In this document: positions 4,418 through 56,862 of the stretch, piece by piece
Layout of the letters: every line of letters begins with the position of its first letter
How positions within the stretch are numbered: position 1 is the first letter of the stretch
DNA from: Eledone cirrhosa
Taxonomy: Eukaryota
Direction: 5' to 3'
Assembly (NCBI GenBank): GCA_964016885.1
Contig: OZ024742.1
Location: 330,770,001-330,834,000 of the forward strand
Length of the DNA: 64,000 nt
The notes under the pieces: generated by a model
What the model saw: the letters and a program-made list of their open reading frames with translations, nothing else
Databases searched by the model: none
Told to the model about the DNA's origin: nothing
Program-made: the position numbers and the translations under genes

Positions 4418-4593
4418 GGTGAATTTGCAGTATCGGTAGAGGCTTTGACGCATAGAATACGGCCTTTGCCATTCTGAGTTCGAATCCCGCCGAGGTTAAC
4501 TTTGCCTTTCATCCTTACGGAGTCGATAAAATAAAGTACCAGTAATACACTGGTTAATTTGCTGGCCTTGTGCCAAAAAGTAGAAACAATTAT
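4418..4593 (+). mobile_element. tRNA-derived SINE
   Basis: A-box-like TTGCAGTATCGG, B-box GAGTTCGAATCC, core CTTTGCCTTTCATCCTTACGG.GTCGATAAAAT, end GTAGAAACAATTAT. Confidence 0.8.
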
Positions 4594-5101
4594 ATGCTAT
4601 CACTACAGTTTACTAGCTTCTCTGAACCAGAACTAACTTCATCGCCACCGCCTGTACTACCAATACATTTTCTAGCTACATATTACACGGCACATCACAG
4701 TCCACGCAGCACAACCAGTAACCGAGTAATCAATCCACCGCCACCATTAGCAGCACCACCACCATCAACATCAACAAGGACCCCGCCATCACGACGACCA
4801 TAACTAACACCAACATTACCAACGCCACAAATATCACACGTGCCACCAACGCGTCCACCTCTACCATACCCACTAGCAACACCACCACTTTAAATATATA
4901 TTTCAGCCCCACGTCATAACTCGCAGTTACTACACCCTCTGAACTCCAAGCAGCTATACTACCCCTCACCATTGCCACAGCAACCACTCCAAACACATAT
5001 TCCAGTATTACCAACATATCCCATACCCAGCCCTATTACTTTCTTTGATTTATACTTTTGGCGATATTTAATACGCACATATGATTTTTTGTGTCTAACT
5101 G

Positions 5102-5134
<33 letters not shown>

Positions 5135-5313
5135 GAACGCACGCATACACGCTCGCGCACACACATATATATATGTATATATATATATGTATATATATAT
5201 GTATATATATGTATATATATATATGTATATATATATGTATATATATATGTATATATATATGTATATATATAGTATATATATATGTATATATATAGTATAT
5301 ATGTATATATGTA

Positions 5314-5380
<67 letters not shown>

Positions 5381-5476
5381 ATATAAATATATATATGTAT
5401 ATATGTATATATATATATATATATAAAATATTAAACAAATAATGAACAAACAATTCCTTATATTAAACAAAAAAAG

Positions 5477-5631
5477 TTCACTATTTAACGATCGTTTCTA
5501 GGGCATATATGTGCTATAATTGGTATGCATATTTAACAGATCTATGTACAAAATTATACAAAATTATACAAATTATCAAGATTAAATATACATACCTAAC
5601 TCATATATACGCCGTCTTCAGAAATAATGAA
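5477..5631 (-). ncRNA. Type I hammerhead ribozyme (Naiad unit 1)
   Basis: Minus strand reads UUCAUUAUUU-CUGAAGA-C-GGCGUAUAU...AUAUAUGCC-CUA-GAAA-CGAUC-GUU-AAAUAGUGAA: 10-bp stem I, stem II, palindromic stem III. Confidence 0.75.
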
Positions 5632-6399
5632 GTATATTTATTGATAATAACAACAATTCAAAATATCAGTTCAAAATTGACCAATGAAAACACAAAGGGT
5701 TAAAAAGCAGTTTGGTGTGTGTATATACATGTAAAACCCTACACACATTTTACAATAATGTGTGTATAATATGTATGTGCATACTAAAAAGATGGATGCA
5801 AATAAAAAATTTCAAGGTTAATATCTCTGTAAGCTTAATGCGCTGATAAGATACGCAATGATACTTATGTAGTCAAGCATATAAATATATTTTTTTCATA
5901 CTCACACATATCAGTATAATCACACATACATGTGCGTATATATATAAATATACACATAACCACGAACACACAAACACACACACACCCCCCACTCACATTT
6001 ATATATGTGGATATAAAATCATAAGCAAATAGAAATTAAGTCACTCACATAAACACACTGGTACACACATTTCAAGATCAAGATACAGAAATTAGGTGGG
6101 AGGGGGGGGGGAGGGGTCAGTATTAGGTTGTCAGACCAGACAGCCTAATATAAATGTATCTATAAATTATGAAAAATAAAAAAATAAAAACAATAAAATA
6201 TATTACATAATATAATGTACATACGCATACAGATATACATACACATACGTACATGTACGCACACATAGAGATATCTACACATACATACATACACACATAC
6301 CTATACTGTCCTACACACACATACATTTACACGAACATACACATACACATATAAAAAGATAAAAATACGGACACACACACGCGCAACACATACACACAT

Positions 6400-6444
<45 letters not shown>

Positions 6445-6554
6445 TATACACACACACACATAGACTCATATATATATACATACACATACATATACTTATA
6501 CATAAACATATATATCCCACACTCATACCACCATGAAAACACATACAAACATCC

Positions 6555-6604
<50 letters not shown>

Positions 6605-6701
6605 ATACACACACGTACACATATATGCATATATACGTACACATATACACACATACACATATATATATATATACACACACACATAAAATACAGACATGCA
6701 C

Positions 6702-6732
<31 letters not shown>

Positions 6733-6831
6733 CATTTCATTACCCTTATATATACACATAGTATATATACATACACAACCTCACTTATACACATATACAC
6801 ATAAGTTATATTACAATAATAATAAAGAATA

Positions 6832-6862
<31 letters not shown>

Positions 6863-7001
6863 TATACACACATATACACATATACATACATACACATACA
6901 TATACATACATACATACACATACATACATACACCTAAATATAAACATATATAAATACACACATACGAATAAAGACATATATTCACACATAGACACCTATA
7001 T

Positions 7002-7040
<39 letters not shown>

Positions 7041-7589
7041 TATCTATATACACACACATACACATACATACACATATATATAAATATATACACATATATA
7101 CACACGCACACACATACAGACGCACATACACACTCACATATATATATATATATATATATATATGTGTATGTGAGTGTGCGCAAATACATACATATATATA
7201 CACACACACACATACAAACACACACAAACACATACATATGCATACATGCACACACACACACATATATCACATAGATACGAAGATAAACATATAAATAGAG
7301 AGACATACAAATATATACAGAACCCATATACACATACATGCAAACACGCATATACATATATACATATATACACACATATATATTCCCATATACAAGCATA
7401 CACATACGCACACATATATACATATACCTACACATATATATACACCACACATTCACATACACGTACATATATAATACATATATATACATACATATACATA
7501 CATATGTATGTACAATCATATATACACACTCAATCTTACATTCATATTTACATGCTCATATATGTATTTTTATATCTAGAAATAAATAC

Positions 7590-7640
<51 letters not shown>

Positions 7641-8902
7641 ATATAGACACCCATCTACCCATATATTCATACATATACACTTACAAAAACAGATGATAAT
7701 AGTATGGGGGAAAGGGGGGGGTTTGGAGAAGGGGATCAAAGTAAATATATGTTTCAAGAAACCTATAATATTTTCCATATCTTAATTCAATGTATGTTCT
7801 TACATATTTTCAATGCTAGGAAATACGAAATCTTTGCATCACAAAATAAAAAAGTATACCATTAATCATATGTCAACTAAACCAAAGATAGTCAACATAT
7901 TGATTTCCAAGGTGTAAATTAGTTAGGTTTATAATATTTGAAGCAGAATTATGAAGTCAAACAGTAGTAGATTATTAATTACATTATAACTAAATTAAAG
8001 TTAATAATAGGGAAAAGAAACCCAAATAAAAATAAAATAAAGTATTACATCGGTAGTAGCATATAAATTATATGTAAACTAAGTTAAAAATTATATATTT
8101 ATTTCAATAGTATATGTTAATTAGTATATGTTAATTAGGTATACAATACATAAAGCAGATATTGTATTTCATCAATAGCATAATATAAATATATGCAAAT
8201 AAAAATCAAAATTAATACGCATACACATACATATACATACACATACACATACATATACATATACATACACATATATATATATATATATACATATATATAC
8301 ACACGTACATACATATATAGTCACATAAATATACATACAGATATACATACAATACACACATATACATATACATATAGATATACATATCTTTTTCAAAAAA
8401 TTTGCACAGAATATATTAACTAGGTATATATCCAAAAACACCTCCCATTCTATGATTACATGAAATTCTGCAATTCGTCTGTACAAGGATACTAATTTTA
8501 AGCAAATTAAAATTAAAATTAAAGTTTTAGGTTGATTAAAGCTAAAACCAAATAATAAATATATTTCCAAAATATATATTAATTAGGTCAATAATACTAA
8601 AAATTCTTTCTCCGTCATAGGATACATGATATTATTTTGTTATATTTTATCTGTAAAAGAATTATAATAAAAAAAATTTTATAATAAAAGGTTAAACTAA
8701 ATTAAAAAATTATAATAAAAGGTTAAAATAAGTTAAAATTAATCTATAAATTAAATTACTGAATATATATTATTAGTAATATTTAAAGGTTTTTCAAAAT
8801 TAATGATTACATAATATTTTCTCATCTGTAATAAAATATTAATTAAATTAAATTTATAGGTTAACTAACATTTAAATTAAATTAAATTCTAGAATAATGT
8901 TA

Positions 8903-11344
8903 TTAATTAGGTTTATAATATTTAAATGTTTTTTTTAGTTTATGATTACATGATATAATTAATTCCTGTCTTTTATTTAATAAGATATCCCTAGACTTCA
9001 TTATTTCAAATAGTTCTTGGGAACATAATCTACATTCCTTTCTATTATTTTGATAAGGGGTGGCTCTTTTGAGCACACTCCAGGTCAAATCATATTTTAT
9101 ATTTTTATTTTTATAACTATTGATTTTTTCTGCTAGAGATGTTGTATTAGCCAGTGCGGCATTTTTAAAGCTATGTTTGTGGGTATTATACCTTGTCTTA
9201 AAATTGTTAGAGGTAGCTCCTATATATGAGCAAATAGAATCTTTAGTTTTAACATTACATTTATAGACTATGTTGTTAACAAGACAATTCCCTTTTAATG
9301 GGCAGTTTGTTTTGTTTCTACAGTTACATCCTTTCGTTAATTCTGTATTTGAGGAGATATTATTGTTAATTTGATGTACTGGTGGTATACTTATAGTTTT
9401 CTTACATTTATATGCATTATATGCACTTATATTTTGTTTTATGTTATTTGTTGTAGAATATGAGAATTTAACTGTAGACCTATTTAAGATTTGATGGTAT
9501 TTGTGGTTTGGCGGGAAGTTTTTCTCAAGGATATAAAAAAATTTTTTAGCAATATTATCCTTAACTTGTAAATTAAAAGGAGCATTATACCAAGTAACTC
9601 GTCTATTACGGTTTCTATGTTGTTTATTATTTTTATTATTTTTATATGTTGTATCATGATTTTTACTAGGAGGAATAATGTTAATGATCTCACCACAACT
9701 ATTTTTAGTTATATTTGTAGATTTAGGTGTTTTATCTTTTTTATTAGGAGTTTTATTATTAATATTTATTATAGTCTTATGATGAGTAGTTTTTTGAGGG
9801 TTACTATACTTTATATTAGAAGATTTAGTATTTTGGGGTATACTGTGGGTGGCATTTAGGTGTGTACCTTTCATTTGGTGTTTGTTGGTAATATTATGCT
9901 GTATGTTTTCAGTATTTTTAGTAGAAGTTATATACTCTAATCTATTTTTGTGGCCACTTCTATCTAGAGCTTCATTATAAAAGGTCGCATTTTTATCAAA
10001 TACATCTTGGTTAGAAGAAAGGTTAGAAATTCTAAGTGATATATTATATGCAAGGTTTTTAAGGATAGATTTAGGGTGATTAGATTGTGAGTGTATGTAA
10101 TGTAAGTTTTGGTTAGGTTTATGGTAAGGTTGGTATATACCCGTAGCTAAATCTAAAGTTATATCTAGGAAATTTACTACTTTACTTGTTTTTTCAAAAG
10201 TAATATTAAGATTATAATAGTCCTTAAGGAAAGTTCTAATATGCTTTTTGTTTTTTTCGATTTCTGAAAGGCTAAGGTTGTTAGAAAGAAGAAGACAGTC
10301 ATCACGATATAAACCACCTTTGAGGTGGGGAAAAGAGGCATTTATGTTGAAAAGGAGAAAGAGGCCCACAAGATCAGTAATTTGGGCAGAATCGCTTGAA
10401 CCCATAGTAATATCAAAAAGATTACTATAAGTGTTTCTGGTCCAGTATTCATTCTGAAATTCAATAAGTGTTTGTCTAGCATGTGTAATAATGTTAATGT
10501 CATCCGAAGTTAAATTAGATCTATTTTTAGCAAATATTAATGCTTTGTTCAGGAGTATGGGTGATATAGAAGAATAATAGTTATCTATATCAAACTGTAG
10601 GAAAGAAGCAGAAGATTTACACCTAATATTTTTAAACCAATTAATTACCTGGGAGGTGTTTTCCCAGAGTGGTAAAATAACGTATTTTCTTATTTGTGGG
10701 ATGACTCTATCTAAAATTTTTTTGCTAATTATTCCAATATCTGATTTGGAGGGACATATAAGTCTAATAGAAGGATTAGAGTTAAAGTTAGATTTGTGAT
10801 CTTTCAGGTTAAAGTGTGGACTTCTCAATGCCAAAGGTTCAGTTCTATCTTCAATATTTAGTTTTTTTACTATGTTGTGTGTTTTGTTGTTGATGTTGGT
10901 GAGTGACGCATTATTAGATTTTTTATAACTTTTTCTGAGTTCTTTATATATGAACTCATTATAATGTTCAATATCCATATGATACAAGTTACCAGTTTTG
11001 TCCGAGTGGACATGGATTTTTTTAGACTTTTTTAGGTCCAATAGGGTAGAATCAAGGTCCTTTTGAAAGACGGATTTATACTTTTTAAATTTGAGATGTT
11101 TAATTAAATTAAAAAGGTCTTTCTCGAAGTCTTCAAGTAAAAAGTTGTGTGGTGGATTCTTGTAAGTGTTGAAATCATACATATATTTCCGATCTGCTTG
11201 TTTAGATTTTCTATCAAAGTGGTAGGCTCTCCATCTAACCCTTCTGATAAAATTATTAGTTTTCTGAATCATAAGGAGTAAGAAGTCGTCCTTAGAAGGT
11301 ATTGGTATGTTTTTTAAGGAGGTTCCTAAATATTGTTTTTCCAT
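8903..11344 (-). CDS. Penelope-like (Naiad-type) reverse transcriptase + GIY-YIG endonuclease, intact, ~813 aa from the first ATG
   Basis: N-terminal SLKNIPIP. RT motifs FDIDNYYSSI, MGS, YRDD, NFLDITLDL, SNHP. RNRRVTWYNAPF linker. CNC..CPLKGNC, IVY..YIG (GIY-YIG), C-terminal CRLC..E and LNKRQE..SCNH. First ATG at 11344; the ORF track starts at an upstream TTG. Confidence 0.93.
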   Translation of the reverse strand: MEKQYLGTSLKNIPIPSKDDFLLLMIQKTNNFIRRVRWRAYHFDRKSKQADRKYMYDFNTYKNPPHNFLLEDFEKDLFNLIKHLKFKKYKSVFQKDLDSTLLDLKKSKKIHVHSDKTGNLYHMDIEHYNEFIYKELRKSYKKSNNASLTNINNKTHNIVKKLNIEDRTEPLALRSPHFNLKDHKSNFNSNPSIRLICPSKSDIGIISKKILDRVIPQIRKYVILPLWENTSQVINWFKNIRCKSSASFLQFDIDNYYSSISPILLNKALIFAKNRSNLTSDDINIITHARQTLIEFQNEYWTRNTYSNLFDITMGSSDSAQITDLVGLFLLFNINASFPHLKGGLYRDDCLLLSNNLSLSEIEKNKKHIRTFLKDYYNLNITFEKTSKVVNFLDITLDLATGIYQPYHKPNQNLHYIHSQSNHPKSILKNLAYNISLRISNLSSNQDVFDKNATFYNEALDRSGHKNRLEYITSTKNTENIQHNITNKHQMKGTHLNATHSIPQNTKSSNIKYSNPQKTTHHKTIININNKTPNKKDKTPKSTNITKNSCGEIINIIPPSKNHDTTYKNNKNNKQHRNRNRRVTWYNAPFNLQVKDNIAKKFFYILEKNFPPNHKYHQILNRSTVKFSYSTTNNIKQNISAYNAYKCKKTISIPPVHQINNNISSNTELTKGCNCRNKTNCPLKGNCLVNNIVYKCNVKTKDSICSYIGATSNNFKTRYNTHKHSFKNAALANTTSLAEKINSYKNKNIKYDLTWSVLKRATPYQNNRKECRLCSQELFEIMKSRDILLNKRQELIISCNHKLKKTFKYYKPN

Positions 11345-11687
11345 TGTGATATGGATGATGGACAATTGAAAGAGCTCAACTAAATGTATATGGGTTTACA
11401 AAATCATACATATATATATGTATATACATAAATATAAAATTAATACACACATACAGTACAAAAATACGAATATTTCCGTGAAAATAGGAGCAAAATTATG
11501 TAGATAAATCTACCAAGAGTTTACGGTAGTGTCCAATCCGTATGAAGAACTCAATGTATTCCGGATATCATGGAAAGAAGAGATGTAATGAAAATCCAAT
11601 TTCGGTGAAAGATAAACGGTATACAGAGTCAAGATAAAATATTAAACAAATAATGAACAAACAATTCCTTATATTAAACAAAAAAAG

Positions 11688-11842
11688 TTCACTATTTAAC
11701 GATCGTTTCTAGGGCATATATGTGCTATAATTGGTATGCATATTTAACAGATCTATGTACAAAATTATACAAAATTATACAAATTATCAAGATTAAATAT
11801 ACATACCTAACTCATATATACGCCGTCTTCAGAAATAATGAA
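11688..11842 (-). ncRNA. Type I hammerhead ribozyme (Naiad unit 2)
   Basis: Same sequence as 5477-5631; lies ~340 nt upstream of the next ORF's ATG. Confidence 0.75.
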
Positions 11843-12610
11843 GTATATTTATTGATAATAACAACAATTCAAAATATCAGTTCAAAATTGACCAATGAAA
11901 ACACAAAGGGTTAAAAAGCAGTTTAGTGTGTGTATATACATGTAAAACCCTACACACATTTTACAATAATGTGTGTATAATATGTATGTGCATACTAAAA
12001 AGATGGATGCAAATAAAAAATTTCAAGGTTAATATCTCTGTAAGCTTAATGCGCTGATAAGATACGCAATGATACTTATGTAGTCAAGCATATAAATATA
12101 TTTTTTTCATACTCACACATATCAGTATAATCACACATACATGTGCGTATATATATAAATATACACATAACCACGAACACACAAACACACACACACCCCC
12201 CACTCACATTTATATATGTGGATATAAAATCATAAGCAAATAGAAATTAAGTCACTCACATAAACACACTGGTACACACATTTCAAGATCAAGATACAGA
12301 AATTAGGTGGGAGGGGGGGGGGAGGGGTCAGTATTAGGTTGTCAGACCAGACAGCCTAATATAAATGTATCTATAAATTATGAAAAATAAAAAAATAAAA
12401 ACAATAAAATATATTACATAATATAATGTACATACGCATACAGATATACATACACATACGTACATGTACGCACACATAGAGATATCTACACATACATACA
12501 TACACACATACCTATACTGTCCTACACACACATACATTTACACGAACATACACATACACATATAAAAAGATAAAAATACGGACACACACACGCGCAACAC
12601 ATACACACAT

Positions 12611-12655
<45 letters not shown>

Positions 12656-12765
12656 TATACACACACACACATAGACTCATATATATATACATACACATAC
12701 ATATACTTATACATAAACATATATATCCCACACTCATACCACCATGAAAACACATACAAACATCC

Positions 12766-12817
<52 letters not shown>

Positions 12818-12914
12818 ATACACACACGTACACATATATGCATATATACGTACACATATACACACATACACATATATATATATATACACACACACATAAA
12901 ATACAGACATGCAC

Positions 12915-12945
<31 letters not shown>

Positions 12946-13044
12946 CATTTCATTACCCTTATATATACACATAGTATATATACATACACAACCTCACTTA
13001 TACACATATACACATAAGTTATATTACAATAATAATAAAGAATA

Positions 13045-13075
<31 letters not shown>

Positions 13076-13214
13076 TATACACACATATACACATATACAT
13101 ACATACACATACATATACATACATACATACACATACATACATACACCTAAATATAAACATATATAAATACACACATACGAATAAAGACATATATTCACAC
13201 ATAGACACCTATAT

Positions 13215-13253
<39 letters not shown>

Positions 13254-13802
13254 TATCTATATACACACACATACACATACATACACATATATATAAATAT
13301 ATACACATATATACACACGCACACACATACAGACGCACATACACACTCACATATATATATATATATATATATATATGTGTATGTGAGTGTGCGCAAATAC
13401 ATACATATATATACACACACACACATACAAACACACACAAACACATACATATGCATACATGCACACACACACACATATATCACATAGATACGAAGATAAA
13501 CATATAAATAGAGAGACATACAAATATATACAGAACCCATATACACATACATGCAAACACGCATATACATATATACATATATACACACATATATATTCCC
13601 ATATACAAGCATACACATACGCACACATATATACATATACCTACACATATATATACACCACACATTCACATACACGTACATATATAATACATATATATAC
13701 ATACATATACATACATATGTATGTACAATCATATATACACACTCAATCTTACATTCATATTTACATGCTCATATATGTATTTTTATATCTAGAAATAAAT
13801 AC

Positions 13803-13851
<49 letters not shown>

Positions 13852-15113
13852 ATATAGACACCCATCTACCCATATATTCATACATATACACTTACAAAAA
13901 CAGATGATAATAGTATGGGGGAAAGGGGGGGGTTTGGAGAAGGGGATCAAAGTAAATATATGTTTCAAGAAACCTATAATATTTTCCATATCTTAATTCA
14001 ATGTATGTTCTTACATATTTTCAATGCTAGGAAATACGAAATCTTTGCATCACAAAATAAAAAAGTATACCATTAATCATATGTCAACTAAACCAAAGAT
14101 AGTCAACATATTGATTTCCAAGGTGTAAATTAGTTAGGTTTATAATATTTGAAGCAGAATTATGAAGTCAAACAGTAGTAGATTATTAATTACATTATAA
14201 CTAAATTAAAGTTAATAATAGGGAAAAGAAACCCAAATAAAAATAAAATAAAGTATTACATCGGTAGTAGCATATAAATTATATGTAAACTAAGTTAAAA
14301 ATTATATATTTATTTCAATAGTATATGTTAATTAGTATATGTTAATTAGGTATACAATACATAAAGCAGATATTGTATTTCATCAATAGCATAATATAAA
14401 TATATGCAAATAAAAATCAAAATTAATACGCATACACATACATATACATACACATACACATACATATACATATACATACACATATATATATATATATATA
14501 CATATATATACACACGTACATACATATATAGTCACATAAATATACATACAGATATACATACAATACACACATATACATATACATATAGATATACATATCT
14601 TTTTCAAAAAATTTGCACAGAATATATTAACTAGGTATATATCCAAAAACACCTCCCATTCTATGATTACATGAAATTCTGCAATTCGTCTGTACAAGGA
14701 TACTAATTTTAAGCAAATTAAAATTAAAATTAAAGTTTTAGGTTGATTAAAGCTAAAACCAAATAATAAATATATTTCCAAAATATATATTAATTAGGTC
14801 AATAATACTAAAAATTCTTTCTCCGTCATAGGATACATGATATTATTTTGTTATATTTTATCTGTAAAAGAATTATAATAAAAAAAATTTTATAATAAAA
14901 GGTTAAACTAAATTAAAAAATTATAATAAAAGGTTAAAATAAGTTAAAATTAATCTATAAATTAAATTACTGAATATATATTATTAGTAATATTTAAAGG
15001 TTTTTCAAAATTAATGATTACATAATATTTTCTCATCTGTAATAAAATATTAATTAAATTAAATTTATAGGTTAACTAACATTTAAATTAAATTAAATTC
15101 TAGAATAATGTTA

Positions 15114-17555
15114 TTAATTAGGTTTATAATATTTAAATGTTTTTTTTAGTTTATGATTACATGATATAATTAATTCCTGTCTTTTATTTAATAAGATATC
15201 CCTAGACTTCATTATTTCAAATAGTTCTTGGGAACATAATCTACATTCCTTTCTATTATTTTGATAAGGGGTGGCTCTTTTGAGCACACTCCAGGTCAAA
15301 TCATATTTTATATTTTTATTTTTATAACTATTGATTTTTTCTGCTAGAGATGTTGTATTAGCCAGTGCGGCATTTTTAAAGCTATGTTTGTGGGTATTAT
15401 ACCTTGTCTTAAAATTGTTAGAGGTAGCTCCTATATATGAGCAAATAGAATCTTTAGTTTTAACATTACATTTATAGACTATGTTGTTAACAAGACAATT
15501 CCCTTTTAATGGGCAGTTTGTTTTGTTTCTACAGTTACATCCTTTCGTTAATTCTGTATTTGAGGAGATATTATTGTTAATTTGATGTACTGGTGGTATA
15601 CTTATAGTTTTCTTACATTTATATGCATTATATGCACTTATATTTTGTTTTATGTTATTTGTTGTAGAATATGAGAATTTAACTGTAGACCTATTTAAGA
15701 TTTGATGGTATTTGTGGTTTGGCGGGAAGTTTTTCTCAAGGATATAAAAAAATTTTTTAGCAATATTATCCTTAACTTGTAAATTAAAAGGAGCATTATA
15801 CCAAGTAACTCGTCTATTACGGTTTCTATGTTGTTTATTATTTTTATTATTTTTATATGTTGTATCATGATTTTTACTAGGAGGAATAATGTTAATGATC
15901 TCACCACAACTATTTTTAGTTATATTTGTAGATTTAGGTGTTTTATCTTTTTTATTAGGAGTTTTATTATTAATATTTATTATAGTCTTATGATGAGTAG
16001 TTTTTTGAGGGTTACTATACTTTATATTAGAAGATTTAGTATTTTGGGGTATACTGTGGGTGGCATTTAGGTGTGTACCTTTCATTTGGTGTTTGTTGGT
16101 AATATTATGCTGTATGTTTTCAGTATTTTTAGTAGAAGTTATATACTCTAATCTATTTTTGTGGCCACTTCTATCTAGAGCTTCATTATAAAAGGTCGCA
16201 TTTTTATCAAATACATCTTGGTTAGAAGAAAGGTTAGAAATTCTAAGTGATATATTATATGCAAGGTTTTTAAGGATAGATTTAGGGTGATTAGATTGTG
16301 AGTGTATGTAATGTAAGTTTTGGTTAGGTTTATGGTAAGGTTGGTATATACCCGTAGCTAAATCTAAAGTTATATCTAGGAAATTTACTACTTTACTTGT
16401 TTTTTCAAAAGTAATATTAAGATTATAATAGTCCTTAAGGAAAGTTCTAATATGCTTTTTGTTTTTTTCGATTTCTGAAAGGCTAAGGTTGTTAGAAAGA
16501 AGAAGACAGTCATCACGATATAAACCACCTTTGAGGTGGGGAAAAGAGGCATTTATGTTGAAAAGGAGAAAGAGGCCCACAAGATCAGTAATTTGGGCAG
16601 AATCGCTTGAACCCATAGTAATATCAAAAAGATTACTATAAGTGTTTCTGGTCCAGTATTCATTCTGAAATTCAATAAGTGTTTGTCTAGCATGTGTAAT
16701 AATGTTAATGTCATCCGAAGTTAAATTAGATCTATTTTTAGCAAATATTAATGCTTTGTTCAGGAGTATGGGTGATATAGAAGAATAATAGTTATCTATA
16801 TCAAACTGTAGGAAAGAAGCAGAAGATTTACACCTAATATTTTTAAACCAATTAATTACCTGGGAGGTGTTTTCCCAGAGTGGTAAAATAACGTATTTTC
16901 TTATTTGTGGGATGACTCTATCTAAAATTTTTTTGCTAATTATTCCAATATCTGATTTGGAGGGACATATAAGTCTAATAGAAGGATTAGAGTTAAAGTT
17001 AGATTTGTGATCTTTCAGGTTAAAGTGTGGACTTCTCAATGCCAAAGGTTCAGTTCTATCTTCAATATTTAGTTTTTTTACTATGTTGTGTGTTTTGTTG
17101 TTGATGTTGGTGAGTGACGCATTATTAGATTTTTTATAACTTTTTCTGAGTTCTTTATATATGAACTCATTATAATGTTCAATATCCATATGATACAAGT
17201 TACCAGTTTTGTCCGAGTGGACATGGATTTTTTTAGACTTTTTTAGGTCCAATAGGGTAGAATCAAGGTCCTTTTGAAAGACGGATTTATACTTTTTAAA
17301 TTTGAGATGTTTAATTAAATTAAAAAGGTCTTTCTCGAAGTCTTCAAGTAAAAAGTTGTGTGGTGGATTCTTGTAAGTGTTGAAATCATACATATATTTC
17401 CGATCTGCTTGTTTAGATTTTCTATCAAAGTGGTAGGCTCTCCATCTAACCCTTCTGATAAAATTATTAGTTTTCTGAATCATAAGGAGTAAGAAGTCGT
17501 CCTTAGAAGGTATTGGTATGTTTTTTAAGGAGGTTCCTAAATATTGTTTTTCCAT
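15114..17555 (-). CDS. Second copy of the Naiad-type RT + GIY-YIG ORF
   Basis: Translation identical to the 8903-11365 copy in the ORF track. Confidence 0.93.
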   Translation of the reverse strand: MEKQYLGTSLKNIPIPSKDDFLLLMIQKTNNFIRRVRWRAYHFDRKSKQADRKYMYDFNTYKNPPHNFLLEDFEKDLFNLIKHLKFKKYKSVFQKDLDSTLLDLKKSKKIHVHSDKTGNLYHMDIEHYNEFIYKELRKSYKKSNNASLTNINNKTHNIVKKLNIEDRTEPLALRSPHFNLKDHKSNFNSNPSIRLICPSKSDIGIISKKILDRVIPQIRKYVILPLWENTSQVINWFKNIRCKSSASFLQFDIDNYYSSISPILLNKALIFAKNRSNLTSDDINIITHARQTLIEFQNEYWTRNTYSNLFDITMGSSDSAQITDLVGLFLLFNINASFPHLKGGLYRDDCLLLSNNLSLSEIEKNKKHIRTFLKDYYNLNITFEKTSKVVNFLDITLDLATGIYQPYHKPNQNLHYIHSQSNHPKSILKNLAYNISLRISNLSSNQDVFDKNATFYNEALDRSGHKNRLEYITSTKNTENIQHNITNKHQMKGTHLNATHSIPQNTKSSNIKYSNPQKTTHHKTIININNKTPNKKDKTPKSTNITKNSCGEIINIIPPSKNHDTTYKNNKNNKQHRNRNRRVTWYNAPFNLQVKDNIAKKFFYILEKNFPPNHKYHQILNRSTVKFSYSTTNNIKQNISAYNAYKCKKTISIPPVHQINNNISSNTELTKGCNCRNKTNCPLKGNCLVNNIVYKCNVKTKDSICSYIGATSNNFKTRYNTHKHSFKNAALANTTSLAEKINSYKNKNIKYDLTWSVLKRATPYQNNRKECRLCSQELFEIMKSRDILLNKRQELIISCNHKLKKTFKYYKPN

Positions 17556-17898
17556 TGTGATATGGATGATGGACAATTGAAAGAGCTCAACTAAATGTAT
17601 ATGGGTTTACAAAATCATACATATATATATGTATATACATAAATATAAAATTAATACACACATACAGTACAAAAATACGAATATTTCCGTGAAAATAGGA
17701 GCAAAATTATGTAGATAAATCTACCAAGAGTTTACGGTAGTGTCCAATCCGTATGAAGAACTCAATGTATTCCGGATATCATGGAAAGAAGAGATGTAAT
17801 GAAAATCCAATTTCGGTGAAAGATAAACGGTATACAGAGTCAAGATAAAATATTAAACAAATAATGAACAAACAATTCCTTATATTAAACAAAAAAAG

Positions 17899-18053
17899 TT
17901 CACTATTTAACGATCGTTTCTAGGGCATATATGTGCTATAATTGGTATGCATATTTAACAGATCTATGTACAAAATTATACAAAATTATACAAATTATCA
18001 AGATTAAATATACATACCTAACTCATATATACGCCGTCTTCAGAAATAATGAA
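17899..18053 (-). ncRNA. Type I hammerhead ribozyme (Naiad unit 3)
   Basis: Same sequence as 5477-5631. Confidence 0.75.
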
Positions 18054-18821
18054 GTATATTTATTGATAATAACAACAATTCAAAATATCAGTTCAAAATT
18101 GACCAATGAAAACACAAAGGGTTAAAAAGCAGTTTGGTGTGTGTATATACATGTAAAACCCTACACACATTTTACAATAATGTGTGTATAATATGTATGT
18201 GCATACTAAAAAGATGGATGCAAATAAAAAATTTCAAGGTTAATATCTCTGTAAGCTTAATGCGCTGATAAGATACGCAATGATACTTATGTAGTCAAGC
18301 ATATAAATATATTTTTTTCATACTCACACATATCAGTATAATCACACATACATGTGCGTATATATATAAATATACACATAACCACGAACACACAAACACA
18401 CACACACCCCCCACTCACATTTATATATGTGGATATAAAATCATAAGCAAATAGAAATTAAGTCACTCACATAAACACACTGGTACACACATTTCAAGAT
18501 CAAGATACAGAAATTAGGTGGGAGGGGGGGGGGAGGGGTCAGTATTAGGTTGTCAGACCAGACAGCCTAATATAAATGTATCTATAAATTATGAAAAATA
18601 AAAAAATAAAAACAATAAAATATATTACATAATATAATGTACATACGCATACAGATATACATACACATACGTACATGTACGCACACATAGAGATATCTAC
18701 ACATACATACATACACACATACCTATACTGTCCTACACACACATACATTTACACGAACATACACATACACATATAAAAAGATAAAAATACGGACACACAC
18801 ACGCGCAACACATACACACAT

Positions 18822-18866
<45 letters not shown>

Positions 18867-18976
18867 TATACACACACACACATAGACTCATATATATATA
18901 CATACACATACATATACTTATACATAAACATATATATCCCACACTCATACCACCATGAAAACACATACAAACATCC

Positions 18977-19024
<48 letters not shown>

Positions 19025-19121
19025 ATACACACACGTACACATATATGCATATATACGTACACATATACACACATACACATATATATATATATACACACAC
19101 ACATAAAATACAGACATGCAC

Positions 19122-19152
<31 letters not shown>

Positions 19153-19251
19153 CATTTCATTACCCTTATATATACACATAGTATATATACATACACAACC
19201 TCACTTATACACATATACACATAAGTTATATTACAATAATAATAAAGAATA

Positions 19252-19282
<31 letters not shown>

Positions 19283-19421
19283 TATACACACATATACACA
19301 TATACATACATACACATACATATACATACATACATACACATACATACATACACCTAAATATAAACATATATAAATACACACATACGAATAAAGACATATA
19401 TTCACACATAGACACCTATAT

Positions 19422-19460
<39 letters not shown>

Positions 19461-20010
19461 TATCTATATACACACACATACACATACATACACATATATA
19501 TAAATATATACACATATATACACACGCACACACATACAGACGCACATACACACTCACATATATATATATATATATATATATATGTGTATGTGAGTGTGCG
19601 CAAATACATACATATATATACACACACACACATACAAACACACACAAACACATACATATGCATACATGCACACACACACACATATATCACATAGATACGA
19701 AGATAAACATATAAATAGAGAGACATACAAATATATACAGAACCCATATACACATACATGCAAACACGCATATACATATATACATATATACACACATATA
19801 TATTCCCATATACAAGCATACACATACGCACACATATATACATATACCTACACATATATATACACCACACATTCACATACACGTACATATATAATACATA
19901 TATATACATACATATACATACATATGTATGTACAATCATATATACACACTCAATCTTACATTCATATTTACATGCTCATATATGTATTTTTATATCTAGA
20001 AATAAATACC

Positions 20011-20041
<31 letters not shown>

Positions 20042-21303
20042 ATATAGACACCCATCTACCCATATATTCATACATATACACTTACAAAAACAGATGATAA
20101 TAGTATGGGGGAAAGGGGGGGGTTTGGAGAAGGGGATCAAAGTAAATATATGTTTCAAGAAACCTATAATATTTTCCATATCTTAATTCAATGTATGTTC
20201 TTACATATTTTCAATGCTAGGAAATACGAAATCTTTGCATCACAAAATAAAAAAGTATACCATTAATCATATGTCAACTAAACCAAAGATAGTCAACATA
20301 TTGATTTCCAAGGTGTAAATTAGTTAGGTTTATAATATTTGAAGCAGAATTATGAAGTCAAACAGTAGTAGATTATTAATTACATTATAACTAAATTAAA
20401 GTTAATAATAGGGAAAAGAAACCCAAATAAAAATAAAATAAAGTATTACATCGGTAGTAGCATATAAATTATATGTAAACTAAGTTAAAAATTATATATT
20501 TATTTCAATAGTATATGTTAATTAGTATATGTTAATTAGGTATACAATACATAAAGCAGATATTGTATTTCATCAATAGCATAATATAAATATATGCAAA
20601 TAAAAATCAAAATTAATACGCATACACATACATATACATACACATACACATACATATACATATACATACACATATATATATATATATATACATATATATA
20701 CACACGTACATACATATATAGTCACATAAATATACATACAGATATACATACAATACACACATATACATATACATATAGATATACATATCTTTTTCAAAAA
20801 ATTTGCACAGAATATATTAACTAGGTATATATCCAAAAACACCTCCCATTCTATGATTACATGAAATTCTGCAATTCGTCTGTACAAGGATACTAATTTT
20901 AAGCAAATTAAAATTAAAATTAAAGTTTTAGGTTGATTAAAGCTAAAACCAAATAATAAATATATTTCCAAAATATATATTAATTAGGTCAATAATACTA
21001 AAAATTCTTTCTCCGTCATAGGATACATGATATTATTTTGTTATATTTTATCTGTAAAAGAATTATAATAAAAAAAATTTTATAATAAAAGGTTAAACTA
21101 AATTAAAAAATTATAATAAAAGGTTAAAATAAGTTAAAATTAATCTATAAATTAAATTACTGAATATATATTATTAGTAATATTTAAAGGTTTTTCAAAA
21201 TTAATGATTACATAATATTTTCTCATCTGTAATAAAATATTAATTAAATTAAATTTATAGGTTAACTAACATTTAAATTAAATTAAATTCTAGAATAATG
21301 TTA

Positions 21304-22755
21304 TTAATTAGGTTTATAATATTTAAATGTTTTTTTTAGTTTATGATTACATGATATAATTAATTCCTGTCTTTTATTTAATAAGATATCCCTAGACTTC
21401 ATTATTTCAAATAGTTCTTGGGAACATAATCTACATTCCTTTCTATTATTTTGATAAGGGGTGGCTCTTTTGAGCACACTCCAGGTCAAATCATATTTTA
21501 TATTTTTATTTTTATAACTATTGATTTTTTCTGCTAGAGATGTTGTATTAGCCAGTGCGGCATTTTTAAAGCTATGTTTGTGGGTATTATACCTTGTCTT
21601 AAAATTGTTAGAGGTAGCTCCTATATATGAGCAAATAGAATCTTTAGTTTTAACATTACATTTATAGACTATGTTGTTAACAAGACAATTCCCTTTTAAT
21701 GGGCAGTTTGTTTTGTTTCTACAGTTACATCCTTTCGTTAATTCTGTATTTGAGGAGATATTATTGTTAATTTGATGTACTGGTGGTATACTTATAGTTT
21801 TCTTACATTTATATGCATTATATGCACTTATATTTTGTTTTATGTTATTTGTTGTAGAATATGAGAATTTAACTGTAGACCTATTTAAGATTTGATGGTA
21901 TTTGTGGTTTGGCGGGAAGTTTTTCTCAAGGATATAAAAAAATTTTTTAGCAATATTATCCTTAACTTGTAAATTAAAAGGAGCATTATACCAAGTAACT
22001 CGTCTATTACGGTTTCTATGTTGTTTATTATTTTTATTATTTTTATATGTTGTATCATGATTTTTACTAGGAGGAATAATGTTAATGATCTCACCACAAC
22101 TATTTTTAGTTATATTTGTAGATTTAGGTGTTTTATCTTTTTTATTAGGAGTTTTATTATTAATATTTATTATAGTCTTATGATGAGTAGTTTTTTGAGG
22201 GTTACTATACTTTATATTAGAAGATTTAGTATTTTGGGGTATACTGTGGGTGGCATTTAGGTGTGTACCTTTCATTTGGTGTTTGTTGGTAATATTATGC
22301 TGTATGTTTTCAGTATTTTTAGTAGAAGTTATATACTCTAATCTATTTTTGTGGCCACTTCTATCTAGAGCTTCATTATAAAAGGTCGCATTTTTATCAA
22401 ATACATCTTGGTTAGAAGAAAGGTTAGAAATTCTAAGTGATATATTATATGCAAGGTTTTTAAGGATAGATTTAGGGTGATTAGATTGTGAGTGTATGTA
22501 ATGTAAGTTTTGGTTAGGTTTATGGTAAGGTTGGTATATACCCGTAGCTAAATCTAAAGTTATATCTAGGAAATTTACTACTTTACTTGTTTTTTCAAAA
22601 GTAATATTAAGATTATAATAGTCCTTAAGGAAAGTTCTAATATGCTTTTTGTTTTTTTCGATTTCTGAAAGGCTAAGGTTGTTAGAAAGAAGAAGACAGT
22701 CATCACGATATAAACCACCTTTGAGGTGGGGAAAAGAGGCATTTATGTTGAAAAG
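21304..22755 (-). pseudogene. 5'-truncated third copy of the Naiad-type ORF (from just upstream of YRDD to the stop)
   Basis: Matches the other units until the inversion junction at 22754-22755. Confidence 0.9.
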
Positions 22756-24975
22756 AAAGACCTTTTTAATTTAATTAAACATCTCAAATTTAAAAAGTAT
22801 AAATCCGTCTTTCAAAAGGACCTTGATTCTACCCTATTGGACCTAAAAAAGTCTAAAAAAATCCATGTCCACTCGGACAAAACTGGTAACTTGTATCATA
22901 TGGATATTGAACATTATAATGAGTTCATATATAAAGAACTCAGAAAAAGTTATAAAAAATCTAATAATGCGTCACTCACCAACATCAACAACAAAACACA
23001 CAACATAGTAAAAAAACTAAATATTGAAGATAGAACTGAACCTTTGGCATTGAGAAGTCCACACTTTAACCTGAAAGATCACAAATCTAACTTTAACTCT
23101 AATCCTTCTATTAGACTTATATGTCCCTCCAAATCAGATATTGGAATAATTAGCAAAAAAATTTTAGATAGAGTCATCCCACAAATAAGAAAATACGTTA
23201 TTTTACCACTCTGGGAAAACACCTCCCAGGTAATTAATTGGTTTAAAAATATTAGGTGTAAATCTTCTGCTTCTTTCCTACAGTTTGATATAGATAACTA
23301 TTATTCTTCTATATCACCCATACTCCTGAACAAAGCATTAATATTTGCTAAAAATAGATCTAATTTAACTTCGGATGACATTAACATTATTACACATGCT
23401 AGACAAACACTTATTGAATTTCAGAATGAATACTGGACCAGAAACACTTATAGTAATCTTTTTGATATTACTATGGGTTCAAGCGATTCTGCCCAAATTA
23501 CTGATCTTGTGGGCCTCTTTCTCCTTTTCAACATAAATGCCTCTTTTCCCCACCTCAAAGGTGGTTTATATCGTGATGACTGTCTTCTTCTTTCTAACAA
23601 CCTTAGCCTTTCAGAAATCGAAAAAAACAAAAAGCATATTAGAACTTTCCTTAAGGACTATTATAATCTTAATATTACTTTTGAAAAAACAAGTAAAGTA
23701 GTAAATTTCCTAGATATAACTTTAGATTTAGCTACGGGTATATACCAACCTTACCATAAACCTAACCAAAACTTACATTACATACACTCACAATCTAATC
23801 ACCCTAAATCTATCCTTAAAAACCTTGCATATAATATATCACTTAGAATTTCTAACCTTTCTTCTAACCAAGATGTATTTGATAAAAATGCGACCTTTTA
23901 TAATGAAGCTCTAGATAGAAGTGGCCACAAAAATAGATTAGAGTATATAACTTCTACTAAAAATACTGAAAACATACAGCATAATATTACCAACAAACAC
24001 CAAATGAAAGGTACACACCTAAATGCCACCCACAGTATACCCCAAAATACTAAATCTTCTAATATAAAGTATAGTAACCCTCAAAAAACTACTCATCATA
24101 AGACTATAATAAATATTAATAATAAAACTCCTAATAAAAAAGATAAAACACCTAAATCTACAAATATAACTAAAAATAGTTGTGGTGAGATCATTAACAT
24201 TATTCCTCCTAGTAAAAATCATGATACAACATATAAAAATAATAAAAATAATAAACAACATAGAAACCGTAATAGACGAGTTACTTGGTATAATGCTCCT
24301 TTTAATTTACAAGTTAAGGATAATATTGCTAAAAAATTTTTTTATATCCTTGAGAAAAACTTCCCGCCAAACCACAAATACCATCAAATCTTAAATAGGT
24401 CTACAGTTAAATTCTCATATTCTACAACAAATAACATAAAACAAAATATAAGTGCATATAATGCATATAAATGTAAGAAAACTATAAGTATACCACCAGT
24501 ACATCAAATTAACAATAATATCTCCTCAAATACAGAATTAACGAAAGGATGTAACTGTAGAAACAAAACAAACTGCCCATTAAAAGGGAATTGTCTTGTT
24601 AACAACATAGTCTATAAATGTAATGTTAAAACTAAAGATTCTATTTGCTCATATATAGGAGCTACCTCTAACAATTTTAAGACAAGGTATAATACCCACA
24701 AACATAGCTTTAAAAATGCCGCACTGGCTAATACAACATCTCTAGCAGAAAAAATCAATAGTTATAAAAATAAAAATATAAAATATGATTTGACCTGGAG
24801 TGTGCTCAAAAGAGCCACCCCTTATCAAAATAATAGAAAGGAATGTAGATTATGTTCCCAAGAACTATTTGAAATAATGAAGTCTAGGGATATCTTATTA
24901 AATAAAAGACAGGAATTAATTATATCATGTAATCATAAACTAAAAAAAACATTTAAATATTATAAACCTAATTAA
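22754..24975 (+). pseudogene. Inverted, 5'-truncated Naiad-type ORF (starts at KDLFNLIK, lacks ~75 N-terminal aa)
   Basis: The 749-aa ORF 22726-24975 is identical to the unit ORF from KDLFNL onward. Its first ~10 aa derive from the antisense arm. Confidence 0.9.
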
Positions 24976-26237
24976 TAACATTATTCTAGAATTTAATTTA
25001 ATTTAAATGTTAGTTAACCTATAAATTTAATTTAATTAATATTTTATTACAGATGAGAAAATATTATGTAATCATTAATTTTGAAAAACCTTTAAATATT
25101 ACTAATAATATATATTCAGTAATTTAATTTATAGATTAATTTTAACTTATTTTAACCTTTTATTATAATTTTTTAATTTAGTTTAACCCTTTATTATAAA
25201 ATTTTTTTTATTATAATTCTTTTACAGATAAAATATAACAAAATAATATCATGTATCCTATGACGGAGAAAGAATTTTTAGTATTATTGACCTAATTAAT
25301 ATATATTTTGGAAATATATTTATTATTTGGTTTTAGCTTTAATCAACCTAAAACTTTAATTTTAATTTTAATTTGCTTAAAATTAGTATCCTTGTACAGA
25401 CGAATTGCAGAATTTCATGTAATCATAGAATGGGAGGTGTTTTTGGATATATACCTAGTTAATATATTCTGTGCAAATTTTTTGAAAAAGATATGTATAT
25501 CTATATGTATATGTATATGTGTGTATTGTATGTATATCTGTATGTATATTTATGTGACTATATATGTATGTACGTGTGTATATATATGTATATATATATA
25601 TATATATGTGTATGTATATGTATATGTATGTGTATGTGTATGTATATGTATGTGTATGCGTATTAATTTTGATTTTTATTTGCATATATTTATATTATGC
25701 TATTGATGAAATACAATATCTGCTTTATGTATTGTATACCTAATTAACATATACTAATTAACATATACTATTGAAATAAATATATAATTTTTAACTTAGT
25801 TTACATATAATTTATATGCTACTACCGATGTAATACTTTATTTTATTTTTATTTGGGTTTCTTTTCCCTATTATTAACTTTAATTTAGTTATAATGTAAT
25901 TAATAATCTACTACTGTTTGACTTCATAATTCTGCTTCAAATATTATAAACCTAACTAATTTACACCTTGGAAATCAATATGTTGACTATCTTTGGTTTA
26001 GTTGACATATGATTAATGGTATACTTTTTTATTTTGTGATGCAAAGATTTCGTATTTCCTAGCATTGAAAATATGTAAGAACATACATTGAATTAAGATA
26101 TGGAAAATATTATAGGTTTCTTGAAACATATATTTACTTTGATCCCCTTCTCCAAACCCCCCCCTTTCCCCCATACTATTATCATCTGTTTTTGTAAGTG
26201 TATATGTATGAATATATGGGTAGATGGGTGTCTATAT

Positions 26238-26272
<35 letters not shown>

Positions 26273-26821
26273 GTATTTATTTCTAGATATAAAAATACAT
26301 ATATGAGCATGTAAATATGAATGTAAGATTGAGTGTGTATATATGATTGTACATACATATGTATGTATATGTATGTATATATATGTATTATATATGTACG
26401 TGTATGTGAATGTGTGGTGTATATATATGTGTAGGTATATGTATATATGTGTGCGTATGTGTATGCTTGTATATGGGAATATATATGTGTGTATATATGT
26501 ATATATGTATATGCGTGTTTGCATGTATGTGTATATGGGTTCTGTATATATTTGTATGTCTCTCTATTTATATGTTTATCTTCGTATCTATGTGATATAT
26601 GTGTGTGTGTGTGCATGTATGCATATGTATGTGTTTGTGTGTGTTTGTATGTGTGTGTGTGTATATATATGTATGTATTTGCGCACACTCACATACACAT
26701 ATATATATATATATATATATATATGTGAGTGTGTATGTGCGTCTGTATGTGTGTGCGTGTGTATATATGTGTATATATTTATATATATGTGTATGTATGT
26801 GTATGTGTGTGTATATAGATA

Positions 26822-26860
<39 letters not shown>

Positions 26861-26999
26861 ATATAGGTGTCTATGTGTGAATATATGTCTTTATTCGTAT
26901 GTGTGTATTTATATATGTTTATATTTAGGTGTATGTATGTATGTGTATGTATGTATGTATATGTATGTGTATGTATGTATATGTGTATATGTGTGTATA

Positions 27000-27030
<31 letters not shown>

Positions 27031-27129
27031 TATTCTTTATTATTATTGTAATATAACTTATGTGTATATGTGTATAAGTGAGGTTGTGTATGTATATATA
27101 CTATGTGTATATATAAGGGTAATGAAATG

Positions 27130-27160
<31 letters not shown>

Positions 27161-27257
27161 GTGCATGTCTGTATTTTATGTGTGTGTGTATATATATATA
27201 TATGTGTATGTGTGTATATGTGTACGTATATATGCATATATGTGTACGTGTGTGTAT

Positions 27258-27307
<50 letters not shown>

Positions 27308-27417
27308 GGATGTTTGTATGTGTTTTCATGGTGGTATGAGTGTGGGATATATATGTTTATGTATAAGTATATGTATGTGTATGTATATATATATGAGTCT
27401 ATGTGTGTGTGTGTATA

Positions 27418-27462
<45 letters not shown>

Positions 27463-28231
27463 ATGTGTGTATGTGTTGCGCGTGTGTGTGTCCGTATTTT
27501 TATCTTTTTATATGTGTATGTGTATGTTCGTGTAAATGTATGTGTGTGTAGGACAGTATAGGTATGTGTGTATGTATGTATGTGTAGATATCTCTATGTG
27601 TGCGTACATGTACGTATGTGTATGTATATCTGTATGCGTATGTACATTATATTATGTAATATATTTTATTGTTTTTATTTTTTTATTTTTCATAATTTAT
27701 AGATACATTTATATTAGGCTGTCTGGTCTGACAACCTAATACTGACCCCTCCCCCCCCCCCTCCCACCTAATTTCTGTATTTTGATCTTGAAATGTGTGT
27801 ACCAGTGTGTTTATGTGAGTGACTTAATTTCTATTTGCTTATGATTTTATATCCACATATATAAATGTGAGTGGGGGGTGTGTGTGTGTTTGTGTGTTCG
27901 TGGTTATGTGTATATTTATATATATACGCACATGTATGTGTGATTATACTGATATGTGTGAGTATGAAAAAAATATATTTATATGCTTGACTACATAAGT
28001 ATCATTGCGTATCTTATCAGCGCATTAAGCTTACAGAGATATTAACCTTGAAATTTTTTATTTGCATCCATCTTTTTAGTATGCACATACATATTATACA
28101 CACATTATTGTAAAATGTGTGTAGGGTTTTACATGTATATACACACACCAAACTGCTTTTTAACCCTTTGTGTTTTCATTGGTCAATTTTGAACTGATAT
28201 TTTGAATTGTTGTTATTATCAATAAATATAC

Positions 28232-28386
28232 TTCATTATTTCTGAAGACGGCGTATATATGAGTTAGGTATGTATATTTAATCTTGATAATTTGTATAAT
28301 TTTGTATAATTTTGTACATAGATCTGTTAAATATGCATACCAATTATAGCACATATATGCCCTAGAAACGATCGTTAAATAGTGAA
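28232..28386 (+). ncRNA. Type I hammerhead ribozyme (inverted Naiad arm)
   Basis: TTCATTATTT 28232-41, CTGAAGA 28242-48, GAAA 28365-68, GTT 28374-76, AAATAGTGAA 28377-86. Confidence 0.78.
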
Positions 28387-28577
28387 CTTTTTTTGTTTAA
28401 TATAAGGAATTGTTTGTTCATTATTTGTTTAATATTTTATCTTGACTCTGTATACCGTTTATCTTTCACCGAAATTGGATTTTCATTACATCTCTTCTTT
28501 CCATGATATCCGGAATACATTGAGTTCTTCATACGGATTGGACACTACCGTAAACTCTTGGTAGATTTATCTACATA

Positions 28578-29364
<787 letters not shown>

Positions 29365-29711
29365 GCGTGTGTGTAGGCCTCTTTGTTTCAGTAATCAGTG
29401 TTGCTTGATCCTAGCAATCAAGCAACTGATGTGTAATCGAATATAAAAACCCTGCGTCATGCGGATCATAATATATTACATATATGGTGTCAGACGGAGT
29501 AACAAAGTAAAAAAAAGAAGAGTGACGATATCACATATTCGACTGCGAATTATTTCCTAGCTATGTACATTTCCAAGGCATCATAATACCATCATGTTAT
29601 AATTATCCAATGTGGTGTCGTCAGGCAGGTATTTCAATGTAAACATGTTTATTTATTTATTTATTTATATGTCTGCCATAATATCAATTCGGTCCCGAAA
29701 GTATATAATAT

Positions 29712-29828
29712 ATAATTGTTTCTACTTTTGGCACAAGGCCAGCAATTACCCAGTACATTACTAGTACATTATTTTATCGACCCCGTAAGGATGAAAAGCA
29801 AAGTTAACTTCGACGGGATTTGAACTCA
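29712..29828 (-). mobile_element. 5'-truncated SINE copy
   Basis: B-box to 3' end of the same family. Confidence 0.8.
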
Positions 29829-46654: not shown

Positions 46655-46840
46655 GGCGGGGGATTGGCAGTATCGGTAGAGGGTCGGACGCCATGCTTTG
46701 ACGCATAGAGTTACGGTCCTTGCCATTCTGAGTTCAAATCCCGCCAAGGTTAACTTTGCCTTTCATCCTTACGGGGTCGATAAAATAAAATACCAGTAAT
46801 ACACTGGGTAATTGCTGGCCTTGTGCCAAAAGTAGAAACA
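46655..46840 (+). mobile_element. Full-length tRNA-derived SINE with a 16-bp TSD
   Basis: TGGCAGTATCGG A-box, GAGTTCAAATCC B-box. TSD ATTATATCTGCGATCT at 46639-46654 and 46841-46856. Confidence 0.9.
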
Positions 46841-46948
46841 ATTATATCTGCGATCTAACTTACTCGGTCCTCAATGTTGCCATTGACTGACCGGCGGTCA
46901 AAAATAATACAGATACAATATAGACACAAACACATATATATATACTTT

Positions 46949-56391: not shown

Positions 56392-56862
<471 letters not shown>

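Follow-up and report, generated by a model that had tools for sequence, protein, structure and literature searches.

Tandem and inverted insertions of a Hydra-clade Penelope-like element in Eledone cirrhosa: genomic copies argue for a single unit-length template and may point to an RNA circle

We analysed a 64,000-nt stretch of the Eledone cirrhosa genome (referred to as the window; assembly GCA_964016885.1, contig OZ024742.1, positions 330,770,001 to 330,834,000 of the forward strand) that carries a 23.2-kb insertion of a Penelope-like element (PLE), a retroelement whose reverse transcriptase (RT) is fused to a GIY-YIG-type nuclease and whose units each bear a hammerhead ribozyme motif. PLEs are the closest relatives of telomerase; the question addressed here is how their tandem and inverted insertions arise and what purpose their hammerheads serve. 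Variants in this insertion and in its relatives across the genome argue that all units of an insertion derive from one unit-length template and that tandems are rebuilt anew. We lean modestly towards reading these tandems as the product of an RT rolling on a ribozyme-made 6.2-kb RNA circle that would have templated both arms. The junction across the predicted ribozyme cut has 1127 exact matches in the 3-Gb assembly (G000), many of the ORFs (open reading frames) are intact, and the genomic copies of so young a family by themselves bear on how PLE tandems form.

A two-armed insertion and the ends of its family

Element positions are numbered from the predicted GUU cut, +1 being the first base past it, over a unit of 6211 positions. 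The insertion (5423-28577) is a single tail-out object with arms of 2.79 and 0.94 units. It is embedded in (TA)n-type microsatellite target sequence, at 5103-5422 on the left and 28578-29361 on the right, and both of its outer ends are element 3′ ends, each running into (TA)n. The long arm (5423-22755, minus strand) consists of head-to-tail copies without linkers, U1 at 5423-11633, U2 at 11634-17844 and U3 at 17845-22755, the last of which ends at unit position 1344 of the third pass. Self-comparison matches 5423-16565 to 11634-22755 at an offset of 6211, and the three predicted cuts fall after 5487, 11698 and 17909, spaced by 6211 twice. In global alignment, U1 and U2 differ by one substitution (5714 G, 11925 A) and by length changes in (AT)n and poly(A), while U1 and U3 show no substitution and differ in simple-repeat lengths. 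The copy number of the array is read from the assembly only, and 1.79 units in place of 2.79 is possible. A fourth copy lies inverted on the plus strand (22754-28577, 2 substitutions relative to U1 in global alignment). It is joined to U3 through a 2-nt microhomology at 22754-22755, with its 5′ end at unit position 574 and its other end in the right-hand (TA)n. The outer end of the array lies at +64, that of the inverted arm at +201, and of the two outer ends only the latter carries the resulting 137-nt tail (+65 to +201, 28441-28577, plus strand).

The original prediction, made from the letters of the window, had described the array with its linker-free copies (~2.8 units), its 6211-bp period over two periods, its single substitution with simple-repeat length changes, its one hammerhead per unit and a leader of ~350 nt. 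Each of these was reproduced, the hammerhead as a motif and the leader as 353 nt from cut to ATG. The extent of the insertion had been underestimated, as the array is only one of two arms: the inverted fourth copy had been missed, as had the position of the outer end 64 nt past the cut.

The type I hammerhead motif is found at 5479-5630 in the terminal copy, at 11690-11841 and 17901-18052 in the internal copies (all minus strand) and at 28233-28384 on the plus strand of the inverted arm, where the predicted cut follows 28376. It comprises CUGAAGA, a stem II of ~110 nt, GAAA-CGAUCG-UU and a stem I of 8 bp. Stem III is palindromic, and the two-molecule fold of the palindrome is predicted at -14.4 kcal/mol. 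Across nine related copies, one of them represented by its 3′ part only, 98.8% of 322 cells pair, and the core and the GUH triplet are also kept.

To describe the family, which is put at roughly 560 insertions, we used 115 locus stretches, made up of the best matches of several searches and of the 65 loci behind the first 100 junction matches listed, which we treat as an unbiased sample. A strict motif search of these stretches returned 65 tail-out pairs and 49 single ends, with nothing in 5 stretches; at a single end the other end is variant, outside the stretch or absent. One +64 end was paired with one +201 end in 63/65 tail-out pairs (32/33 within the unbiased sample). A first survey of ends, in which 30/30 lay at +201, was biased by its query and is not used. 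The +201/(TA)n joint was confirmed in the raw reads of an independent DNA run (674 reads, X17). Genome-wide, four junction matches have a different base at -1, two of them being a GUA variant in one locus, with the limit that a junction pattern anchored at -1 would miss ends trimmed by a few bases. The original prediction had raised the possibility that other genomic copies would be circularly permuted; their 3′ ends are fixed, and no permutation is seen there. By analogy, the +64/+201 pair is the equivalent of the tail of PAc, a Poseidon PLE of Anolis, in which the tail is defined by two internal positions, both past the hammerhead, at which the RT starts (Frangieh et al. 2024, PMC11167929). 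The novelty in the present family lies in their pairing, the two arms of a single insertion each starting from a different one of these sites.

One template per insertion

In the whole 3-Gb assembly, a variant at unit position 3864 occurs four times, each time in the window insertion: in the three tandem units and in the inverted arm. Similar agreement between arms was found across the family. Over 45 two-arm loci, the arms differ at 20/30,655 scored sites, with a between-loci median of 0.5%; in one locus (C3) 0/3191 sites differ. By contrast, the sole 201/201 pair has arms that differ at 3/1019 sites. Arm ends were scored in a table of 178 arms from 103 loci, curated by hand and compiled without regard to arm length. 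Both 5′ ends fall within 30 nt of each other in 6/53 two-arm loci that are not mini-insertions (described below), compared with a shuffle mean of 0.8, which suggests a single molecule as their source. At one locus 5′ ends coincide across passes, but the arm in question is interrupted by an assembly gap and the case was set aside. As a general source of the second arm, fold-back copying of a single cDNA was rejected by loci such as L103, where the +64 arm is longer than the +201 arm and both are shorter than one unit.

An arm longer than one unit is present in 21 loci (5/65 in the unbiased sample). Twenty of these differ from each other by 1-96 substitutions in the first 3.3 kb, and their units measure 6070-7190 nt. 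Over the 32,028 tandem-covered sites of the 21 loci, 37 rare variants are common to all tandem copies (in 14/21 loci), and 11 sites differ. Units passed down in a line of tandem donors would diverge from each other as fast as the lines do, and they have not, which speaks against inheritance from tandem donors. After removal of 10 sites that stem from an unrelated insertion nearby, terminal and internal copies of +1 to +201 are left with 3 private differences, which do not discriminate. No RNA-editing signature was found in the shared variants, which include 14 A>G and 10 T>C changes among 67. The excess of shared over split variants argues that the units of a tandem derive from one unit-length template and that each tandem is built afresh. 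Three loci have two arms of more than one unit with an overlap that can be scored; two of them contain no pass-matched variant, and the third is taken up below.

Where arms stop, and routes to a tandem

Eighteen of the 20 length-unselected arms that reach the upstream cut pass it, and the other two end at +1 and +13, both in the locus at G000:C3 ~197.976 Mb. The run-through together with the rare +1 ends indicates that cut linear templates exist and are in the minority. An arm ending at +1 is found in that locus and in one mini-insertion (L151), suggesting that the cut occurs in vivo. A different stop is common at first passage: by hand count, 26/93 arms in an unbiased chromosome sample end at -145 to -130. 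Mini-insertions account for 17/65 unbiased loci, and 26 of their arms stop at 6068-6081, about -142, the 5′ edge of the hammerhead. Their junctions are mutually different, so that each marks an independent insertion, templated by a short RNA whose 5′ end is sharply defined and whose ribozyme is uncut. From this edge we infer a transcript start near -142 (near 11839 in the window), where a TCATT sequence presumably resembles an initiator. Linear long templates beginning at -142 would halt every long arm on its second pass, and 0/33 later passes stopped there (0/17 in the length-unselected table, the rest counted by hand), which argues otherwise. Four arms ended in the interval from the cut to -142, and another two near -170.

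Several further observations concern these ends. The mini-insertions are palindromic insertions of ~550 bp, made of -142 to +201 and -142 to +64 (L160, L165, L190, L191, L205, L209 and others), and read depth in runs X1 and X4 peaks over the same region. At L207:620-700, a +201 arm has at its 5′ end a short-repeat stutter copied from the surroundings of the cut site, such as a stalled RT might leave. In a 2.75-unit arm at L194-L195 (G000:C1 ~273.66 Mb), a short microhomology connects position 471 to -16 in an internal jump.

In the simplest account, transcription would start near -142 and a transcript longer than one unit would be cut at both hammerheads, aided by pairing of the palindromic stem III. 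The unit-length RNA would then be ligated into a circle by a host ligase, possibly of the RtcB type, as demonstrated for retrozymes (PMC7229834). The element's protein may cut both (TA)n strands, each end priming with ~3 nt of A/U pairing, one at +201 and one at +64. For the window insertion, the enzyme would have gone round the RNA 2.8 times for the long arm and 0.9 times for the inverted arm, and both cDNAs would continue, displacing earlier cDNA, until joined through microhomology. Mini-insertions would come from short RNAs that have just one hammerhead and are left uncut and linear.

The single-unit origin, with a shared template and fixed +64/+201 pairing, narrows the field to such a circle and to strand transfer on linear RNA. 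According to the latter, a linear monomer, running from the cut or from -142 to at least +201 with its second hammerhead uncut, is copied by an RT that, once at the 5′ end, jumps one or more times into the terminally redundant sequence of that RNA or of a sister molecule. It passes through the same single-unit bottleneck and leaves the same seamless joints, so that the two cannot be separated from DNA alone. The locus ending at +1 and +13 represents a linear template, the mini-insertion L175 jumped from its 5′ end back to about +13, and uncut RNA was the main in vitro substrate of the lizard PLE (PMC11167929). Arm ends also pile up short of one unit: 37/58 arms end between positions 1500 and 202, and the density of stops over the 1.3 kb that precede +201 is 0.49 per kb, compared with 0.11-0.19 earlier. 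Free rolling on a circle does not predict such a pile-up, although the excess would fit heterogeneous linear monomers and a barrier to first-round closure equally. On the other side, strand transfer would need a jump efficiency of ~90% on long RNAs to yield 18/20, whereas among mini-insertions, with their sharp 5′ end, only 1/26 arms jumped, leaving extra bases. We regard strand transfer as the less probable explanation, to be taken seriously at perhaps half the weight we give the circle.

Other results also weigh against the circle. Covariation in the hammerhead was not above shuffles (83/500), and Rfam detected no hammerhead at gathering or E-value thresholds, so that cleavage is a prediction. 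For PAc, hammerhead mutations left in vitro insertion undiminished, and none of the RNA-seq reads had its end at the cut (PMC11167929). A second variant of the window that appeared private within the sample has 73 exact matches genome-wide, so rarity in the sample is an upper bound on privacy and overstates it. In the third of the loci with a pair of long arms, two markers are common to the second-pass copies and missing from the first-pass ones, as a linear multimer predicts; there the copies face each other across a perfect palindrome, and conversion is a plausible source. In another locus, a private base at +101 is present in the two innermost copies only, which no model fits without an extra event.

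The pass-matched markers bring in the proposal, made for the lizard PLE (PMC11167929), of a linear multi-unit mRNA transcribed from a tandem donor, the tandems having arisen by earlier unequal crossover or by duplication after insertion. The units of such a donor would diverge separately, yet shared variants outnumber split ones by 37 to 11. The position-3864 variant exists nowhere else in the assembly, later passes never stopped at -142 (0/33), and crossover has no way of making arms of 1.2-1.9 units, with their scattered ends, from arms shorter than one unit. We consider this route improbable. A DNA circle, formed by recombination of terminal direct repeats and transcribed round into multimeric RNA before reverse transcription, would also impose a single-unit bottleneck. 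It calls for an extra step and for intact hammerheads that never cut, nothing points to a DNA circle, and we rate it a little lower still. Least probable of all, to our mind, is assembly expansion of near-identical repeats. The size of the insertion (23 kb) and the fact that U1 and U3 differ only in simple-repeat lengths would invite it, but arms of more than one unit occur in 20 further loci, whose variants and unit lengths are their own, and the +201/(TA)n junction is present in independent raw reads. The copy number in the window may still be off by one. The rolling-circle reading of the original prediction thus stands in part: a single unit-length template and arms that run through the ribozyme site are found, as would be predicted for rolling-circle copying, and its choice of a circle over strand transfer is beyond what DNA can decide.

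Clade, neighbours and known systems

The ORF starts with an ATG at +354 and encodes 813 aa. In the window it is intact at 8903-11344 and, with an identical protein, at 15114-17555; the third copy (21304-22755, also minus strand) is 5′-truncated, as is the ORF of the inverted arm, which runs to 24975. The rest of the 6.2-kb unit includes a 3.4-kb microsatellite-rich 3′ region. Its motifs are RWR at residues 37-39, DKT at 115-117 and YRDD at 346-349, followed after an N/K-rich linker by C673-C675-C681 (CxCx5C), VY..YIG at 693-709, C771-C774 (CxxC) and C799-H801 (CxH). The C-terminal GIY-YIG nuclease was called by motif, and its R, H, E and N are conserved in an alignment of 12 relatives. Relatives have RWK or RWR, the cysteines between VY and YIG are not conserved, and the CCHH motif is not present. 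Among the 7999 candidates scored, 117 relatives share 31-48% identity. A Pfam search of the ORF returned no family, and the top nine matches of the predicted fold (pLDDT 78) in the PDB are telomerase RTs (E 2e-8 to 6e-7). The ORF is intact in 16/20 full units compared, and its variants present in at least 4 loci comprise 34 synonymous and 18 non-synonymous changes, a synonymous excess as expected of an active family. A disordered N/K/T-rich insert lies between RT and nuclease linker (residues 475-580; window 9605-9922); it is missing in most relatives and resembles the N-rich inserts of rotifer PLEs.

The insertion is real and the element is of a known kind, with an unusually long unit and tail. 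A single ORF with a telomerase-related RT and a fused GIY-YIG domain, partial tandems, an inverted 5′-truncated copy and a one-sided tail are the features of endonuclease-containing (EN+) PLEs. A C-terminal endonuclease, RWK/DKT, the CxCx5C linker, CxxC and CxH without CCHH, a (TA)n target and a hammerhead motif are those of the Hydra clade (diagnostic list in PMC8557442, section 11). The tendency of that clade towards <3 kb, which is not part of its definition, is not shared by units of 6070-7190 nt. By this motif list, the element has the motifs of an ordinary-type EN+ PLE of the Hydra clade, and the autonomous retrozyme-like element of the original prediction is not supported as a new class. 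Naiad/Chlamys identity was rejected, since the endonuclease there is N-terminal and here C-terminal, and since that group lacks a canonical hammerhead whereas a hammerhead motif is present here. Identity as a non-LTR retrozyme was rejected for a coding unit of 6.2 kb, versus a small, non-coding and non-autonomous one.

Other elements lie in the window. A sister insertion at 56860-60620 (~85% identity) is likewise built of two arms; its ends correspond to +201 and +64, and its cleavage triplet is GUA. At 46841-50916, an inverted 5′-truncated pair of an RT element with a C-terminal VY..YIG (ORFs at 47776-48912, minus, and 49031-50482, plus) has arms that are 98% identical and end in (TA)n; it is probably a second PLE family. 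A broken non-LTR element with AP endonuclease and RT matches in Pfam occupies 39116-43354 on the minus strand. Copies of a short interspersed repeat, which we take to resemble cephalopod SINEs, occur near (TA)n tracts at 4500-4600, 29700-29810 and 46700-46850.

The Hydra-clade EN+ PLEs of Craig et al. (2021, PMC8557442) share with the present element a single ORF with RT and C-terminal GIY-YIG, RW[K/R], DKT, CxCx5C, CxxC and CxH without CCHH, as well as the (TA)n target, the hammerhead, tandem and inverted insertions, and a tail at one end. Where that paper describes Hydra members of mostly <3 kb with tails of 30-40 nt, the unit here is 6.2 kb and the tail 137 nt; stem II of ~110 nt and arms of up to 2.8 units also set it apart, and the hammerhead sequence is unlike the Hydra-1_oBim motif listed there. 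In PAc, both target strands are cut and extended and the target is likewise AT-rich, whereas the RT start sites lie in the ORF there and in the leader here; the multi-copy mRNA scenario proposed for PAc does not fit the variant pattern found here (PMC11167929). A 2020 review calls the in vivo role of PLE hammerheads a mystery (PMC7761336).

The circle itself is not a new idea. A model for PLE tandems by self-cleavage, ligation and reverse transcription beyond one unit was published by Cervera and de la Pena (2014, PMC4209133) as a tentative proposal without in vivo evidence. It is the mechanism of the original prediction, and the family described here adds genomic tests. In the open-access literature we found no paper with such genomic evidence. 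Animal non-LTR retrozymes (PMC7229834; bioRxiv 10.64898/2026.07.22.740005) share the type I hammerhead in each tandem unit and have a link to PLEs. Their circular RNAs have been shown experimentally, whereas the circle here is read from DNA, and they are 170-400 nt, non-coding and non-autonomous, whereas the present unit of 6.2 kb encodes its own RT and nuclease.

We see about an even chance that this family is an autonomous animal retrotransposon with a protein-coding, ribozyme-made circular RNA as its main intermediate, copied by two RTs that are primed from the two sides of a single chromosome cut at fixed sites 137 nt apart, the rolling copy regenerating a promoter-bearing tandem in each generation. 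If so, it would supply the autonomous parent mechanism that animal retrozymes have been missing.

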